Sequence record: NC_052654.1
Length of the DNA stretch: 64,000 nucleotides
From: Escherichia phage vB_EcoM-Ro121c4YLVW
Direction: 5' to 3' (one strand)
Of this stretch, positions 36,060 through 58,599 are shown one piece after another. The notes under the pieces are model-generated. The model did not search any database. It was given only the letters and a program-made list of their open reading frames with translations, and had not been told where the DNA came from. The position numbers and the translations under genes were made by a program. Each line of letters starts with the position of its first letter. Position 1 is the stretch's first letter.

Positions 36060-36198
36060 GATGTTGTCCTTTGTTTCGTTTCGTTGTTTGCTGCCAGTAA
36101 GTTAAATATAATATAACGCCGATCCCCTGTCAATAGGGGATAGCGCATTATTTACATTTCTTTACGTTAAAGGGCGCTTAGTGCGCCCTTGTATAATC

Positions 36199-36567: not shown

Positions 36568-36819
36568 TTTATTTTCCTCTTTGTGGGCTTGCTGTATTGC
36601 TTGCCCTACGAGATAAATAATAATATAAGGGTGATCCGGTGTCAATAGGTAGAATTGTAAAGATTCGATAGTTTATCTCTTTGATGTTTTGTTGTTTGAT
36701 AGGTGTTAGCTATCAATATATAGCGGGGTCGTCCGGTGATTATCTTCCCTGTTGCCAGTGCCGCCCGTTCAATAAGCATAACAAAAAACAGGACAAAAAC
36801 AAGCCCTGTTTTGTAAAGA

Positions 36820-37040: not shown

Positions 37041-37100
37041 GTGAGCGGCACCATTGCCGCCCTACAAAACACATCTTACACTATCCGGCACATTGTGCAA
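37041..37100 (-). promoter_or_regulatory. array promoter unit (TTGCAC-N16-TAAGAT, TAGGGCGG, hairpin GCGGCAATGGTGCCGC)
   Basis: Read on minus strand upstream of 36820-37023. Confidence 0.55.
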
Positions 37101-37729: not shown

Positions 37730-37783
37730 GTGTCTATCCTCTTCCTATTGCGTTTAATGGGGCGTTACCGCCCCGCTTATGGT

Positions 37784-38020: not shown

Positions 38021-38064
38021 AATCTTTCCCTTTCTGATGTGGGGCGTTGCCGCCCCTTTGTTGA

Positions 38065-38364
38065 TTAGATCGCTGTTTCCAGTAGTTCGGCTAACGTCTT
38101 ACCGCCTGATAGTTGGTCTAACGTTTGCTCTTCTGGCAAGAAATTAGCTGATATTAATCCGACTTGATTTCCTTTGTGCCAATTAGCTTGACGGATGATT
38201 CCATCCTTTAAAGATTTTACCGCCATTGTGCAACCGTCGCCAAATGATTCATTTTTATGATCCATTACTTCATAAGCGCCCAGCTTGCTGCTGTTAGGCA
38301 CCATTAATGCGAATACATCACCAACAACCAGTTTTTCTACGGTAACAATAGCGATAGTTTCCAT
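38065..38364 (-). CDS. hypothetical protein
   Basis: ORF track 99 aa; RBS GAGGAAAG. Confidence 0.45.
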   Translation of the reverse strand: METIAIVTVEKLVVGDVFALMVPNSSKLGAYEVMDHKNESFGDGCTMAVKSLKDGIIRQANWHKGNQVGLISANFLPEEQTLDQLSGGKTLAELLETAI

Positions 38365-38382
38365 TTTACTTTCCTCATTATC

Positions 38383-38439
38383 GGCGGCACCATTGCCGCC
38401 CTACGTGGTAAATATTAGCACACTGGCGATCTGTGTCAA
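38383..38439 (-). promoter_or_regulatory. array promoter unit (TTGACA-N16-TAATAT, GTAGGGCGG, hairpin)
   Basis: ggcggcaccattgccgccctacgtggtaaatatta...tgtcaa on + strand. Confidence 0.6.
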
Positions 38440-38445
38440 TACTTT

Positions 38446-38832
38446 TTATTCAATATAAATCAAATTATCTTCACCAATGTAAGCCGACACGTTCGGCATA
38501 AACTTAGCTGCATTGGTTAGGCGGTTCGCCGTGTTAGTGGTGTATATTTCAGGGCGATCCCAAAAGCCTACGCCGTGACTGTTACGGGTAAAATGTAAAT
38601 CATTCCCGATCTGGTTGGCTGTTGCGCCGTCGCTCATTGCCTCAGAGATAGCGGCATTATTGGCATCACAAAACGCCGCCACGTCACGTATGATCCGCTG
38701 ATGGGCTTGATCTGAAAATTCATAATCAGTCATGTCATCTATAAAATTACCTTCATGATCCCTTGCGGATTCAGCAAAAATAAAGGCTTCTTTATAACCG
38801 TTGATGATTTCAATAATGATTTCTGTTTTCAT
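38446..38832 (-). CDS. hypothetical protein
   Basis: ORF track 128 aa. Confidence 0.45.
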   Translation of the reverse strand: MKTEIIIEIINGYKEAFIFAESARDHEGNFIDDMTDYEFSDQAHQRIIRDVAAFCDANNAAISEAMSDGATANQIGNDLHFTRNSHGVGFWDRPEIYTTNTANRLTNAAKFMPNVSAYIGEDNLIYIE

Positions 38833-39053
38833 GCTGTACGCTCGACAATAATAATGGTTTGCGGTATCTCGTTTTCTACTACTAATAAGGCTTTTTTCTG
38901 CGTGATAGATATTTTAACACGTTGTAAAGTAGCGGTAAAATCTTTCATTTCATTATGCGCGGATTTAGTGCAATGCCAGATCTCAGGCTTACCTATTTGC
39001 AAGCCGCGTAAAAATTCTGTTTTACCTGTCTTATTCGTGATCATTTGATTCAC
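38829..39053 (-). CDS. hypothetical protein
   Basis: ORF track 74 aa. Confidence 0.4.
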   Translation of the reverse strand: MNQMITNKTGKTEFLRGLQIGKPEIWHCTKSAHNEMKDFTATLQRVKISITQKKALLVVENEIPQTIIIVERTA

Positions 39054-39054
39054 C

Positions 39055-39159
39055 TTAACCGATACCGTGGGAAGATAGGATCATATTAGCCATAGTTGCA
39101 ACCACTCCAACCGATAACGCCAGGCCCACTATTACAACCGTGAAAATTTTCTCTAACAT
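39055..39159 (-). CDS. 34-aa hydrophobic membrane peptide
   Basis: Own promoter/hairpin unit upstream, RBS GAGGG; below ORF-track cutoff. Confidence 0.4.
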   Translation of the reverse strand: MLEKIFTVVIVGLALSVGVVATMANMILSSHGIG

Positions 39160-39426
39160 GATTCTACCCTCATTAATGGGCGTTGCCTTATTGCCCCGCC
39201 CTACGAAATACATTCTATCAGATAACAAATTATCGTCAAGATTTATTTTTTACTTCCCAAACGGAAAATTCGCTGCCTGTTGGGATCATCTTTTTAATCT
39301 TGTTTGCTGCCGCTACCAGGTCAACGGCTTGCACTGTAATAATATAACCAATTGTCGAGGCTGTTGCGTTGAAAGTTTTCATTATATTACCCTTTAATAC
39401 AGGCGGGATTAATCCCGCCTTGTTGA

Positions 39427-39597
39427 TTACTCTTCATCGTCGCCGTTATAGTATTCAATGCCATTTTCATCGGTTACGGTGATGTTAACGCCACCGATAG
39501 CAACACGATCACGGGCAAACGTCATGGCTTCATTTAAATCTTCAGACCAAAAAATATTGTGACCTTTGCGCGATACATAAAACATAGTCGGGATCAT
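39427..39597 (-). CDS. hypothetical small protein
   Basis: Start at ATG after AGAAGAGAAA; upstream part of track ORF is leader hairpin. Confidence 0.45.
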   Translation of the reverse strand: MIPTMFYVSRKGHNIFWSEDLNEAMTFARDRVAIGGVNITVTDENGIEYYNGDDEE

Positions 39598-39618
39598 GAT
39601 TTGTTTCTCTTCTGTTGT

Positions 39619-39681
39619 GAGCGGTGGACCATTCCGCCGCCCTATGTGGTAAACTTTACTACGTTGTTTGCGTGCTGTCAA
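39619..39681 (-). promoter_or_regulatory. array promoter unit (TTGACA-N17-TAAAGT, ATAGGGCGG, hairpin GGCGGAATGGTCCACCGC)
   Basis: Hairpin stem differs from other copies but stays self-complementary. Confidence 0.6.
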
Positions 39682-39682
39682 A

Positions 39683-39967
39683 TTATTTTTTAATGTTTTG
39701 CCCTACAAAATTAATCATTTCCTTAAGCTGTCTCTCTGTCATGATCGTACCTGGTAACTCTTCTTTAATTTCTTCCGGTAAATAAATATTACCGCGCCAG
39801 GTTAACAAACAACCGTTTTGATCTTCGCAGATAGAATAGGAAAACATCCACTCGCAATCATTTTCAAGCTCCCAAAAACACAAAAAGTCTTCTTTCCCTA
39901 AGTTTTCAACGGTTAAACATAATCCGCGACGTGCTGCATAATTAGTTAGGCTTTTTGTGATTTTCAT
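39683..39967 (-). CDS. hypothetical protein
   Basis: Start at internal ATG (MKITKS...), 94 aa. Confidence 0.45.
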   Translation of the reverse strand: MKITKSLTNYAARRGLCLTVENLGKEDFLCFWELENDCEWMFSYSICEDQNGCLLTWRGNIYLPEEIKEELPGTIMTERQLKEMINFVGQNIKK

Positions 39968-39986
39968 GATTTTTCTCTCTTCTTGT

Positions 39987-40044
39987 GAGCGGCACCATTG
40001 CCGCCCTACAAGATACATATTACCAGACTAAGCCGACTTGTCAA
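39987..40044 (-). promoter_or_regulatory. array promoter unit
   Basis: gagcggcaccattgccgccctacaagatacatatta...tgtcaa. Confidence 0.6.
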
Positions 40045-40457: not shown

Positions 40458-40480
40458 CGTGTAATCCTCTCATTTGCCTT

Positions 40481-40540
40481 GGGAACTATTCCCGCCGCCC
40501 TATGAATTAAATATACACTATCTCAAAAAGATTGCAAGCC
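40481..40540 (-). promoter_or_regulatory. array promoter unit (hairpin variant GGGAATAGTTCCC)
   Basis: gggaactattcccgccgccctatgaatt...tgcaag. Confidence 0.55.
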
Positions 40541-40856: not shown

Positions 40857-40916
40857 GGGCGCGGCACCATTGCCGCCCTACACGATAACTATAACACAAT
40901 ATAAAACAGGATCAAC
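40857..40916 (-). promoter_or_regulatory. array promoter unit
   Basis: gcgcggcaccattgccgccctacacgat...gatcaa. Confidence 0.55.
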
Positions 40917-41124: not shown

Positions 41125-41145
41125 AATGTTTTTCTCTTTTATGTG

Positions 41146-41203
41146 GTCGGGAACTATTCCCGCCCTACGTGATACATCTTATCATACTTGGTTATGCTGT
41201 CAA
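41146..41203 (-). promoter_or_regulatory. array promoter unit (TTGACA-N16-TAAGAT)
   Basis: ggtcgggaactattcccgccctacgtgatacatctta...tgtcaa. Confidence 0.6.
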
Positions 41204-41395: not shown

Positions 41396-41450
41396 TTTTG
41401 TTTATCCTCTACATGTAAAAAGAAAGGGCGCTTGATGCGCCCTTGTTATG

Positions 41451-41597: not shown

Positions 41598-41676
41598 TTT
41601 GTTTCCTCTTCATATGAGCGGCACCATTGCCGCTATATTGTTAATTTAAACTGTTTTGTAAAATTGTCAAGGTTTA

Positions 41677-42047: not shown

Positions 42048-42106
42048 GAGCGGGAACTATTCCCGCCCTACGTGTAACAGTTTACTAAAAATTAAATCGG
42101 TGTCAA
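42048..42106 (-). promoter_or_regulatory. array promoter unit
   Basis: gagcgggaactattcccgccctacgtgtaac...tgtcaa. Confidence 0.6.
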
Positions 42107-42629: not shown

Positions 42630-42707
42630 TTTCTTTCTCTCTTTCTGGTGATTGGTTTCTCTTCTCTATAGCGCCCATTATAAGGCGCTATAACGAAAAG
42701 TCAACGA

Positions 42708-42875: not shown

Positions 42876-42966
42876 AATATTTTCCTCTTCTCTTTGTTAG
42901 GCGGTGGACCATTCCGCCGCCTTGATGTAATACAGTTTACTTTATTTTTGCAGTATTGCAAGCGTT

Positions 42967-43179: not shown

Positions 43180-43212
43180 CGTGATAATCTCTCTTCTGTT
43201 GTGAGCGGCACT

Positions 43213-43270
43213 ATTGCCGCCCTACGTAATACAGTTTACTCTTTTTCTTTCCCGTGTCAACAATCTTTTT
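43213..43270 (-). promoter_or_regulatory. array promoter unit
   Basis: gagcggcactattgccgccctacgtaatac...tgtcaa. Confidence 0.6.
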
Positions 43271-43519: not shown

Positions 43520-43579
43520 GGCGGGAAACCACTTCCCGCCCTATGTGATACATCTTACACTAATTTTAAACGTTGTCAA
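43520..43579 (-). promoter_or_regulatory. array promoter unit (hairpin variant GGCGGGAAGTGGTTTCCCGCC)
   Basis: ggcgggaaaccacttcccgccctatgtgatacatctta...tgtcaa. Confidence 0.6.
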
Positions 43580-43849: not shown

Positions 43850-43911
43850 GAGGCGGGAACTATTCCCGCTCTCTATGTAATACAGTTTACTCTTTTTATT
43901 CGTGCTGTCAA
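43850..43911 (-). promoter_or_regulatory. array promoter unit (degenerate TAGAGAGCGG)
   Basis: gaggcgggaactattcccgctctctatgtaatac...tgtcaa. Confidence 0.5.
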
Positions 43912-44283: not shown

Positions 44284-44380
44284 GGTGTCACTCTCTCTTT
44301 TTGGTTAGTGGGAAGTATTCCCGATAAAAGTTATTATGCTTATACTATCACTCATTGTCAATAGTATAAGACTAAAACTT

Positions 44381-44560: not shown

Positions 44561-44580
44561 GATGTTAACCTTTTATTGTT

Positions 44581-44637
44581 GGCGGCACCATTGCCGCCCT
44601 ACGTGATAAACTATACCAGAAGTTTAAACAGTGTCAA
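44581..44637 (-). promoter_or_regulatory. array promoter unit
   Basis: ggcggcaccattgccgccctacgtgataaacta...tgtcaa. Confidence 0.6.
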
Positions 44638-45027: not shown

Positions 45028-45088
45028 GGCTGGGAAGTATTCCGCCGCCCTATGTGATACATCTTATCAGATTAAAAAACGTTGTCAA
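45028..45088 (-). promoter_or_regulatory. array promoter unit
   Basis: ggctgggaagtattccgccgccctatgtgatacatctta...tgtcaa. Confidence 0.6.
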
Positions 45089-45219: not shown

Positions 45220-45278
45220 GAGCGGCACCATTGCCGCCCTACGTGGTAAATATTATGCCAGTGGCGGCGATATGTCAA
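45220..45278 (-). promoter_or_regulatory. array promoter unit
   Basis: gagcggcaccattgccgccctacgtggtaaatatta...tgtcaa. Confidence 0.6.
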
Positions 45279-46091: not shown

Positions 46092-46167
46092 TCTACCACC
46101 TTACAAATAGCGGGAACTATTCCCGCTTTATGTAACATATTAACAAATTATTCGTTAATGTCAAGCC

Positions 46168-46440: not shown

Positions 46441-46464
46441 GATGATAATCTCTCTTCTGTTGTG

Positions 46465-46525
46465 AGCGGTGGACCATTCCGCCGCCCTATGTGATACATC
46501 TTATCAGGTTGTTGTTTGTTGTCAA
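46465..46525 (-). promoter_or_regulatory. array promoter unit
   Basis: gagcggtggaccattccgccgccctatgtgatacatctta...tgtcaa. Confidence 0.6.
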
Positions 46526-46748: not shown

Positions 46749-46807
46749 GAGCGGCACCATTGCCGCCCTACGTGGTAAATATTATGCCGCCACCTGGCGA
46801 ACGTCAA
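46749..46807 (-). promoter_or_regulatory. array promoter unit (last copy)
   Basis: gagcggcaccattgccgccctacgtggtaaatatta...cgtcaa. Confidence 0.6.
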
Positions 46808-47290: not shown

Positions 47291-47537
47291 TTTGTAAAGA
47301 AATGTAAAGATAAAATAATCGCTTGCTTTCCTGGCTGGATCTGTTATTCTTATTACATGGCGAGGGGACACGGGAGCGCGAGACAAACACCACCCCTGCG
47401 CGTCATTCTCTAAATGAGAATGATTATCATTTACCTTATCAAATAAGAATCAATCTCATTTATAAACCTAAATGCGAATCATTATCATTTGCATTTCCAT
47501 ATGAGAACTCTTCTCATTCCCATCTGCATAAATTTTT

Positions 47538-47740
47538 GTAAACTTTAAATTTTGCTTTTGTACTTTCATTTTTGTAAAAGCAAAAAAACTTTAAATACTG
47601 TGGGCGCGCAAAATTTTTAAAATTTTCCTTGACTTTTGAGTTTTGTTTTGTATCTGACATTTTAAGATAATTTTCCTAAACTTTAAATTTTGGTTTTCAA
47701 CTTTCACTTTTGTAAATTCTTAAAAAGTTTAAATAATTTG
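47538..47740. repeat. two about 63-bp direct repeats rich in A-tracts plus short TTTGAGATAA repeats (iteron-like)
   Basis: Copies at about 47538-47600 and 47677-47740. Confidence 0.55.
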
Positions 47741-58586: not shown

Positions 58587-58599
58587 AGGGGGAGTGAGT

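Follow-up and report, generated by a model that had tools for sequence, protein, structure and literature searches.

Why would a short hairpin recur behind one phage promoter after another, changing its letters from copy to copy while remaining able to pair with itself? The question is raised by a 64,000-nt stretch of Escherichia phage vB_EcoM-Ro121c4YLVW (record NC_052654.1; this whole stretch is hereafter called the window), in which positions 38383–38402 read GGCGGCACCATTGCCGCCCT on the plus strand and, as the reverse complement, AGGGCGGCAATGGTGCCGCC. An original prediction, made from the letters alone, had described this element as a leader hairpin whose structure is kept through compensatory changes. 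We show here that the hairpin is real, far beyond chance, and that its pairing is maintained while the sequence of the stem changes.

The Hairpin Belongs to a Repeated Promoter Cassette

What the window holds around this locus is the early small-gene array of a Phapecoctavirus-like coliphage, about 10 kb of minus-strand genes. The 37–47 kb block is 95–98% identical to the Phapecoctavirus coliphages tuntematon, Ro121lw, Mt1B1_P17, ESCO13, and others (Stephanstirmvirinae); its genes are small open reading frames (ORFs) on the minus strand, nearly all of them annotated as hypothetical protein in the matched Phapecoctavirus records.

All 16 exact copies of TAGGGCGG lie on the minus strand between 37057 and 46770, where 0.61 would be expected and where none of 100 shuffles reached 16; each stands 8 nt downstream of a sigma70-type −10 box and opens a GC-rich hairpin of 5–9 bp. 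Read on the minus strand, the cassette runs from an A-rich tract resembling an upstream (UP) element through TTGACA, a 16–17-nt spacer, and TAnnnT (often with TG upstream) to 8 nt of the form tTaCCACg or gTATCACa, TAG, and the GC-rich hairpin; a 17–23-nt unstructured, purine-rich leader with a Shine-Dalgarno (SD) sequence follows, then ATG. A promoter-anchored scan together with an inventory of the intergenic gaps added six degenerate copies (46130, 43875, 41635, 36608, 42920, and 44320), bringing this modular unit of about 110 bp to about 22 copies in the array. The focal cassette is laid out as follows:

38434–38439, minus strand: −35 hexamer TTGACA, preceded by the A-rich UP-like tract gaataaaaagta
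38412–38417, minus strand: −10 hexamer TAATAT with TG upstream, followed by 8 nt (ttaccacg) and then TAG
38404: G, the predicted +1 from promoter geometry
38396–38403, minus strand: TAGGGCGG, with TAG as the initial transcribed sequence and GGCGG as the 5′ arm of the stem
38383–38400, minus strand: leader hairpin GGCGGCA-AUGG-UGCCGCC, 7 bp, −14.2 kcal/mol
38362–38382, minus strand: unstructured leader GATAATGAGGAAAGTAAA with SD, then the ATG (38364–38362) of a 99-amino-acid ORF

E. coli RNA polymerase favours a purine 7–8 nt past the −10 box, with a pyrimidine before that purine. From such geometry we infer that transcription would start at the purine directly before TAG (G in 11 of 20 copies and A in 9, i.e., GTAG or ATAG), that the hairpin would begin at +4, and that it would occupy about +4 to +24 of the early mRNAs; the predicted 5′ end leaves 3 unpaired nt, or 0 in the few copies where GU..AC pairing continues the helix.

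The original prediction placed a stem-loop at the 5′ end of every array transcript. A strong promoter does lie just upstream of the hairpins, but “every” goes too far, the leaders behind promoters 42704 and 36133 being hairpin-free; some array genes, moreover, have no promoter. The related hairpins that it had reported at 37759 and 38041 (GGGGCG-GTAA/GCAA-CGCCCC), devoid of a promoter of their own, are indeed there, and the array holds three hairpins of this kind (39402–39419, 38041–38056, and 37759–37774), whose distance to the next start codon is the same as in the cassettes.

Pairing Is Maintained while the Stem Sequence Changes

The hairpin was formed by all 20 leaders tested, with a mean folding energy of −13.4 kcal/mol and a mean z of −3.2 against dinucleotide shuffles; it began 3–5 nt past the purine preceding TAG. 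Two copies were weak (45052 and 40502, each −7.8 kcal/mol), and in whole-leader folds the SD was left unpaired in most cassettes.

Covariation was scored on 56 distinct family hairpins from several phage genera, which are related paralogues. The layout was loop-anchored and N-padded, with artificial 15-nt end anchors (padding Ns were set aside), and the register was anchored for each sequence on the closing pair given by RNAfold. Read as an upper view that leans toward structure, since the register was fitted and the rows are paralogues, the covariation score was 0.432 versus 0.144 with shuffled partners, and cells changed on both sides numbered 119 versus 54, neither value being reached in any of 500 shuffles; controls with slid partners gave 0.06–0.14. 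Over the first nine positions, 82% of cells were paired, versus 58% when the 3′ arms were shuffled among sequences (standard deviation 1.8; maximum 64% in 1000 trials). Among the 56 hairpins, 36 distinct 7-bp apical stems were counted. A MAFFT sequence alignment followed by RNAalifold recovered no pairs, because length differences had been put in one arm and the stems were out of register.

As regards pairing, the original prediction is thereby borne out: the element stays self-complementary despite its variation, each leader tested folds, and paired changes exceed those of shuffled controls. Its inventory of types needs some correction. GCGGCAATGGTGCCGC, which it had assigned to most copies, is the commonest type, yet no more than 7 of the 16 copies belong to it, with one AATAGT variant besides; GGGAATAGTTCCC is present in cassettes 40502 and 42070 as announced, and in 41167, 46130, and 43875 as well; GGGAAGTGGTTTCCC is found at 43543; GGCGGAATGGTCCACCGC is found at 39644 and 46489, with an internal C.A mismatch and ending in ...CCGCT, not in ...CCGCC. 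The other hairpins of the array, all on the minus strand, are listed below.

46749–46768, minus strand: GGGCGGCA-AUGG-UGCCGCUC, cassette 46770
46464–46487, minus strand: GGGCGG(C)GGA-AUGG-UCC(A)CCGCUC, cassette 46489
46109–46127, minus strand: AGCGGGAA-UAG-UUCCCGCU with degenerate head TAAAGCGG, cassette 46130
45220–45239, minus strand: GGGCGGCA-AUGG-UGCCGCUC, cassette 45241
45028–45049, minus strand: weakened hairpin GGCGGCGGAA-UAC-UUCCCAGCC, −7.8 kcal/mol; one pair is broken by a C-to-A change when compared with three relatives
44578–44602, minus strand: core GGCGGCA-AUGG-UGCCGCC, cassette 44601
44310–44322, minus strand: short hairpin GGGAA-UAC-UUCCC behind promoter TTGACA-17-CATAAT, an extra cassette
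43850–43873, minus strand: GAG(A)GCGGGAA-UAG-UUCCCGCCUC, head TAGAGAGC
43520–43540, minus strand: GGCGGGAA-GUGGU-UUCCCGCC, cassette 43543
43201–43225, minus strand: GGGCGGCA-AUAG-UGCCGCUC, extendable by GU..AC up to the predicted +1
42899–42923, minus strand: AGGCGG(C)GGA-AUGG-UCC(A)CCGCCU behind TTGCAA/TAAACT, with head TCA, not TAG; an extra cassette
42048–42068, minus strand: GGGCGGGAA-UAG-UUCCCGCUC, cassette 42070
41617–41634, minus strand: AGCGGCA-AUGG-UGCCGCU, head shortened to TAGCGG
41143–41168, minus strand: core CGGGAA-UAG-UUCCCG, cassette 41167
40858–40878, minus strand: GGGCGGCA-AUGG-UGCCGCGCC, cassette 40880
40476–40498, minus strand: core GGGAA-UAG-UUCCC, cassette 40502, weak, −7.8 kcal/mol
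39985–40009, minus strand: GGGCGGCA-AUGG-UGCCGCUC, cassette 40008, partner in the crossover of the nieznany 38451–39989 deletion
39619–39642, minus strand: GGGCGG(C)GGA-AUGG-UCC(A)CCGCUC, cassette 39644
39178–39201, minus strand: interrupted hairpin GGGCG-GG-GC-AAUAAG-GC-AA-CGCCC, cassette 39203
37043–37062, minus strand: GGGCGGCA-AUGG-UGCCGCUC, cassette 37064
36583–36609, minus strand: interrupted hairpin GGGC-AA-GC-AAUACA-GC-AA-GCCC, a chimera of two phiWec179 cassettes joined at CGTAGGGC
39402–39419, minus strand: promoter-less hairpin GGCGGGAU-UA-AUCCCGCC, 7 nt past a stop codon and 19 nt before the next ATG
38041–38056, minus strand: promoter-less intergenic hairpin GGGGCG-GCAA-CGCCCC, GNRA loop in the sense strand
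37759–37774, minus strand: promoter-less intergenic hairpin GGGGCG-GUAA-CGCCCC; the tuntematon orthologue is AGGGCG-GUAA-CGCCCU

Seen from the plus strand, which is antisense to the genes, all three hairpins without a promoter (38041–38056, 37758–37775, and 39401–39420) have T-rich tails behind them, for example GGGGCGTTGCCGCCCC TTTGTTGATT, and were scored as terminator-like; antisense transcription might be stopped there as well.

The Same Geometry in Other Phage Lineages

A 91-nt cassette query found relatives in 152 phage records. We fetched the early regions of Justusliebigvirus alia, Cronobacter phage PBES 02 (Certrevirus), slur16 (Vequintavirus), Salmonella phage SSBI34, GE_vB_MG (a Seunavirus), the 348-kb Asteriusvirus slurp01, and four more Phapecoctavirus phages. 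The same geometry, with differing stems, is found in Phapecoctavirus, Justusliebigvirus, Certrevirus, Vequintavirus, the Seunavirus-like phage, and Asteriusvirus; in every genus the stem starts 10–12 nt past the −10 box and ends 17–23 nt before ATG. Among these stems are GGCGGGAAA-UGG-UUUCCCGCC, GCGGGGA-GUGG-UCCCCGC, GGGCGAC-ACAAC-GUCGCCC, AAAGG-CAACAA-CCUUU, GGCGGGA-AACA-UCCCGCC, GGGGC-AACAA-GCCCC, and GGGGAGAA-UAG-UUCUCCCC. Behind such promoters, a leader either folds into a hairpin (−9 to −17 kcal/mol) or is CA-rich and essentially without structure. Scanning IMG/VR with the pattern TTGACA-N15-18-TANNNT-NNNN-CACRTAG gave, among the matches listed, mostly single chance matches, with new members coming from a few loci (L014, L025, L039, L084, L094-096, and L115-117).

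Some of these leaders deserve a description of their own. The second class (e.g., L002:14531, L004:15956, L006:3315, and L001:21192) follows the same promoters and retains CATAG or GTAGGGC; it consists of an unstructured C/A-rich, U-poor tract (CATAGACAAACGAAAG...) with a folding energy of about 0, and it resembles the leader CATACCGAAACGAA of phage RB49. In Asteriusvirus slurp01 (348 kb), cassettes of the family lie at 1042, 2567, and about 3000, with hairpins GGGGAGAA-UAG-UUCUCCCC and GCGGGGGAA-UAG-UUCUCCCGC, and in Sugarlandvirus DevonBitter, a T5-like Klebsiella phage, a promoter followed by GTAGGGCGGCAAG, devoid of a hairpin, lies at about 3000. Such occurrences suggest that promoter cassettes have been exchanged between unrelated phage lineages.

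A Putative Protective and Insulating Leader

What would such a hairpin do? That it is an RNA leader structure protecting and insulating short early mRNAs is a reading to which we give an even chance. Host sigma70 RNA polymerase would start at the purine just before TAG, and the hairpin would act as a sequence-independent RNA structure near the 5′ end or, in read-through transcripts, internally between cistrons. RppH and RNase E would be hindered in their 5′-end-dependent attack or scanning, 3′ exonucleases working on upstream fragments would be halted, and the ribosome site would be shielded from pairing with whichever gene lies upstream; each gene module would thus be functional in any context, which would suit a region evolving by cassette shuffling. 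Among phages, the leader of T7 gene 10 (phi10) carries a 5′ stem-loop similar to those of ompA and papA. Base-paired 5′ ends are known to slow RNase E, and ompA and papA have 5′ stem-loop stabilisers (PMC3997798); RppH and RNase E need at least 2 unpaired 5′ nt and prefer at least 3 (PMC8833179).

The stabilisers in the 5′ untranslated regions of ompA and papA (Emory, Bouvet and Belasco 1992, as cited in PMC3997798) are close to our element in several respects: a sequence-independent hairpin near the 5′ end (a predicted one here) is followed by an unstructured leader and the ribosome site; structure matters and sequence does not, as seen here from covariation and 36 distinct stems; and protection would be expected by analogy, since RNase E and RppH need unpaired 5′ nt (PMC3997798, PMC8833179). 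They differ in that the predicted 3-nt tail of our leaders is at the limit where protection fails (PMC8833179), and in that our element is repeated about 22 times in a mobile cassette and also occurs between cistrons without a promoter.

Several points weigh against a protective leader. With the predicted 3-nt unpaired tail (R-U-A) and the preference of RppH and RNase E, an ompA-like protection would be at best partial, and the helix can be extended to +1 via GU..AC in some copies only. The three promoter-less hairpins mean that the extreme 5′ position is not the whole story; as these copies keep the same distance to the start codon, a broader protective or insulating role before each ribosome site would fit better. 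The strand test gave 24 G.U cells versus 21 A.C cells, and the sense RNA was just 0.7 kcal/mol stabler than the antisense (p = 0.045, on non-independent rows). Selection on structure and not on sequence, as originally predicted, is thus upheld as regards pairing, through covariation and a position kept across genera, and not as regards RNA versus cruciform; GNRA loops and fixed distances to promoter and start codon weakly favour a role in RNA. Our literature search found no transcriptome or start-site study for these phage groups. Lastly, several single disruptive stem changes are tolerated, both in window copies and in relatives, and much of the covariation stems from the swapping of complete hairpins between paralogues, which needs no selection event at each site.

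Indeed, when the same gene is followed from phage to phage, most hairpin change is the replacement of a whole hairpin by the type of another cassette: in 5 phages, the gene starting ATGGCATCA is preceded by 4 different types of hairpin, each of which is found at other cassettes too. True point compensation is rare; it includes a G.U to A-U change in orthologues of TAGAGCGG...CCGCTC and a G-C to A-U change between GGGGCG...CGCCCC (37759) and AGGGCG...CGCCCU in the tuntematon orthologue, while the loops GUAA and GCAA are both GNRA in the sense strand. The paired stem changes of the original prediction therefore comprise a few classical double substitutions, the majority of the changes being recombinational replacements.

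One may then ask whether the hairpin is a functionless palindrome, hitch-hiking in a cassette that is spread and homogenised by duplication and gene conversion, its two arms travelling together. Orthologous genes carrying different complete hairpins that occur at other cassettes would be explained in this way, as would the retention of decayed copies (45052 and 40502, each −7.8 kcal/mol, and relatives with single disruptive changes). We nevertheless find this quite improbable: at least 36 distinct stems are complementary, even unrelated ones in distant genera (AAAGG-CAACAA-CCUUU and GGGCGAC-ACAAC-GUCGCCC), point compensations occur at orthologous sites, the position relative to the −10 box and ATG is conserved, and hairpins persist without promoters.

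The diversity of the loops bears on another explanation, namely that one trans-acting factor recognises all the hairpins, either a phage or host RNA-binding protein or endoribonuclease or, at the level of DNA, a protein bound to an operator at +4 to +24, serving the joint shut-off or processing of all early genes once the early phase is over. The same element stands behind about 22 promoters of one temporal class, its overlap with the early transcribed region is typical of a roadblock repressor, and the phi92/phAPEC8 group keeps AAU(G/A)GU(U) in the loop while the stem below changes. The diversity of both loops (among them AUGG, UAG, GUGGU, ACAA, AACA, AAA, ACAAC, and CAACAA) and stems speaks against one sequence-specific binder, however, recent common descent together with gene conversion can account for loops being conserved within one genus, and no candidate factor was identified; we consider a trans-acting factor unlikely, and so too the common sequence-specific operator that had originally been proposed, given how different the stems are.

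Terminators, Early Stem-Loop Cassettes, and Other Known Systems

We reject an intrinsic terminator, as no convincing T-run follows the cassette hairpins, while bona fide terminators of the array have T-runs. In a terminator scan, 46770 alone was flagged among the hairpins with exact TAGGGCGG, on account of its weak tail ATTATTTGGA; for the degenerate copy at 41635, a score was obtained on the antisense strand only.

The closest known systems are the promoter(early)–stem-loop (PeSL) cassettes of T4-like phages, in which an early sigma70 promoter and a stem-loop mediate modular shuffling (Arbiol et al. 2010, PMC2839356; Comeau et al. 2014, PMC4122927). Like the PeSLs of RB49/phi1, PST/T4, and nt-1/KVP40 described there, our cassettes are repeated units of about 100 bp in which an AT-rich tract, a sigma70 promoter close to consensus, and a GC-rich stem-loop are followed by an SD with a start codon; they are concentrated in a hyperplastic region of small ORFans, and indel or replacement crossovers between close relatives fall inside the cassette. 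They differ in their phages, which are Stephanstirmvirinae and Vequintavirinae, not T4-like, and above all in the place of the hairpin. In the sequence of RB49 itself, the PeSL hairpin is enclosed by the −35 and −10 boxes (TTGACA-GGGGATC...GATCCCC-TATAAT) or covers the −10 box, and the leader is unstructured; those of PST lie just upstream of the promoter (PMC4122927), and both have been interpreted as terminators (PMC2839356, PMC4122927). In all of the roughly 22 cassettes of the window, the hairpin instead follows the predicted start, from a fixed +4 onward, and has no U-tract, hence it belongs to the transcript of the cassette itself. A further mark of the PeSLs is that the genes flanked by them excise as mini-circles. 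The window cassettes are PeSL-like, sharing the other PeSL features of sequence and location, yet they are not strict PeSL members. Within the literature searched, a PeSL-like promoter cassette with a 5′-leader hairpin is apparently new for this phage group.

By analogy with PeSLs, the hairpin could act as a terminator or attenuator damping upstream transcription, in which case promoter activities would not be additive along the array. The RB49 stem-loops do lower the expression of a lacZ gene placed downstream, to an extent similar to that of the rrnB T1 terminator (PMC2839356), and the array combines about 22 co-oriented promoters with few canonical terminators. We regard such damping as very improbable, since the cassette hairpins are without the U-tract found in the array terminators at 41444–41424, 35626–35604, and 36812–36785, and since termination downstream of the promoter would kill the cassette's own transcript, the RB49 hairpin lying between −35 and −10.

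The two promoters of the array with hairpin-free leaders look different. At promoter 42704 (42667–42692, minus strand), the −10 box of TTGACT-16-TATAAT lies in a hairpin loop closed by 9 bp (TATAGCGCC-TTATAAT-GGGCGCTATA) and the leader is unstructured, a classical PeSL geometry unlike that of the other window cassettes; promoters of SSBI34 have a similar sequence past the −10 box (TATAATgggcggcatag...). At promoter 36133 (36060–36198, minus strand), it is the −35 box that is looped out, by a CCCCT/AGGGG stem, and the promoter continues TTGACAGGGGATCGG, as do the RB49 PeSLs (TTGACAGGGGATCGGTGATCCCC); its leader has a 17-mer, CGAAACGAAACAAAGGA, in common with RB49, and a terminator-like hairpin, CAAGGGCGCACTAAGCGCCCTT, lies upstream. 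The 94-amino-acid ORF at 39683–39967 (minus strand), directly behind cassette 40008, is 48% identical to RB49 ORF194 (E = 4e-34), an orphan gene of the PeSL-rich hyperplastic region of RB49, with a 23-nt stretch identical to the window ORF; by this similarity, it is an orphan gene common to T4-like and phi92-like phages.

Sigma70-type early promoters with a UP element have been described in rV5 (PMC3606486) and in Certrevirus CB7, CR3, CR8, and CR9 (PMC7344957), with the consensus AAAA(N3)TGTTGAC(N19)TATAAT. They resemble the promoter part of our cassettes, cluster likewise among short hypothetical ORFs, and come from the same phage family as found here; the passages of these two papers on promoters, stems, and motifs do not mention a downstream hairpin or cassette-mediated shuffling.

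Several other identities were weighed on the sequence alone and set aside. A lambda/rrn-type boxA past the hairpin would be CGCUCACAACA, which is only partly like GCUCUUUAACA, occurs in some cassettes only, and overlaps the 3′ arm. A sigma70-dependent proximal pause does not fit TAGGGC, which has no T at position 6 of the −10-like hexamer; a CsrA site does not fit loops without GGA; and an upstream ORF from the AUG of the AAUGGU loop would be missing in most other hairpin types. An N4-type hairpin promoter does not fit a hairpin lying downstream of a sigma70 promoter, and these phages are not known to have a virion RNA polymerase. Searching Rfam with window 30000–64000 (E ≤ 1) returned no family for the hairpin and one unrelated weak match at 58588, no similar sequence was found in 5,426 E. 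coli genomes, and a literature search for the motif strings found no paper containing them.

The Cassette as a Recombination Module

When the array was compared with four relatives, 16 of 27 breakpoint clusters fell in cassettes, which make up 19% of the sequence (p = 6e-6), bearing in mind that cassettes are gene boundaries as well. Phage nieznany is without window positions 38451–39989: at the junction, the promoter of cassette 40008 has become linked to the leader of cassette 38403, and the crossover falls inside GTAGGGCGGCAATGGTGCCGC, common to both cassettes. Similarly, window cassette 36608 consists of the promoter of one phiWec179 cassette and the hairpin and leader of the next, joined at CGTAGGGC, and the gene between these two phiWec179 cassettes is absent. 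The conserved TAGGGCGG-hairpin block is thus a homologous crossover site by which gene modules are deleted, inserted, and exchanged between related phages, a role on which the original prediction was silent.

Could the hairpin, as DNA or as a cruciform, itself be the signal for recombination or mobility, read by a structure-specific nuclease or by a REP/RAYT-like HUH enzyme recognising the GTAG head and the palindrome? Crossovers inside the TAGGGCGG-hairpin block, breakpoints enriched in cassettes, and related cassettes in unrelated phage groups (including the 348-kb Asteriusvirus) would agree with it, and the wobble and energy evidence shows no strong preference for RNA. The organisation as (G/A)TAG, a GC stem of 6–9 bp, and a short loop also resembles that of GTAG-tagged REPs (PMC3733652). 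The likeness to these gamma-proteobacterial elements of RAYT transposases (PMC3733652, PMC3479197) extends from the unpaired (G)TAG head, the GC-rich stem of 6–9 bp, and the short loop to sub-families with alternative complementary stem residues, G.T pairs, and proposed roles in mRNA stability at the RNA level. In REPs, however, the GTAG head is inseparable from the palindrome and is found in >90% of copies, whereas 11 of 20 are GTAG here; REPs are chromosomal and downstream of genes, whereas our element is phage-borne, upstream of genes, and tied to promoters, with no RAYT link and no match in E. coli genomes. Here, TAG is also seen where the leader has no hairpin (CATAGACAAACG..., GTAGGGCAAAC...), and a GTAG head is absent from the hairpins without a promoter, so that head and palindrome are separable; about half of the copies are ATAG, although the first G is a conserved position in REPs (PMC3733652). 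Membership of the REP/RAYT family is rejected on these grounds. As 20–26 nt of identity suffice for ordinary homologous recombination, as fixed distances to promoter and ATG would be superfluous, and with 0 matches in 5,426 E. coli genomes, a DNA-level signal is in our eyes very improbable.

Taking RNA and DNA forms together, a dedicated recognition element can be imagined, in which a phage or host factor would read (G/A)UAG plus hairpin: an RNA-binding protein or nuclease processing or silencing the early regulon, or a HUH, RAYT, or structure-specific enzyme acting on single-stranded DNA. We think this rather unlikely. If the factor did act on the DNA form, the promoter cassettes would be actively mobile, which would explain the close cassettes of unrelated coliphage lineages, namely the phi92/phAPEC8 group, the rV5 group, and the jumbo Asteriusvirus.

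The Neighbouring Non-Coding Region

Beside the early array lies a non-coding, AT-rich stretch with other repeats. Three palindromic units of about 22 nt (AATGAGAATGATTATCATTT / AATGCGAATCATTATCATTT), 29 nt apart, occupy 47410–47518, where a repeat_region is annotated in tuntematon; the unit resembles the E. coli Fur box, GATAATGATAATCATTATC. In the same region, 72-nt direct repeats at 47531–47602 and 47669–47740 are 82% identical, with a third, partial copy at 47621–47649, and carry promoter-like TTTACA...CAAAAT pieces; this repeat region could be an origin or a regulatory region.

Implications for These Phages

The idea of a portable promoter cassette driving modular gene shuffling, which comes from the PeSLs of T4-like phages, is extended by this finding to a jumbo phage and to the rV5/phi92/phAPEC8 supergroup, with a differing design in which the stem-loop lies within the 5′ leader of the transcript itself. 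The rV5/phi92/phAPEC8 groups are widely used in phage therapy collections and, in genomes where nearly all early genes are hypothetical, the cassettes provide a simple marker of early transcription units. If the hairpin is indeed a stabiliser and insulator, each cassette would be a compact natural “promoter + insulator + ribosome-binding site” part, available in dozens of natural variants, and this would explain how tiny orphan genes can be swapped freely without their expression being disturbed.

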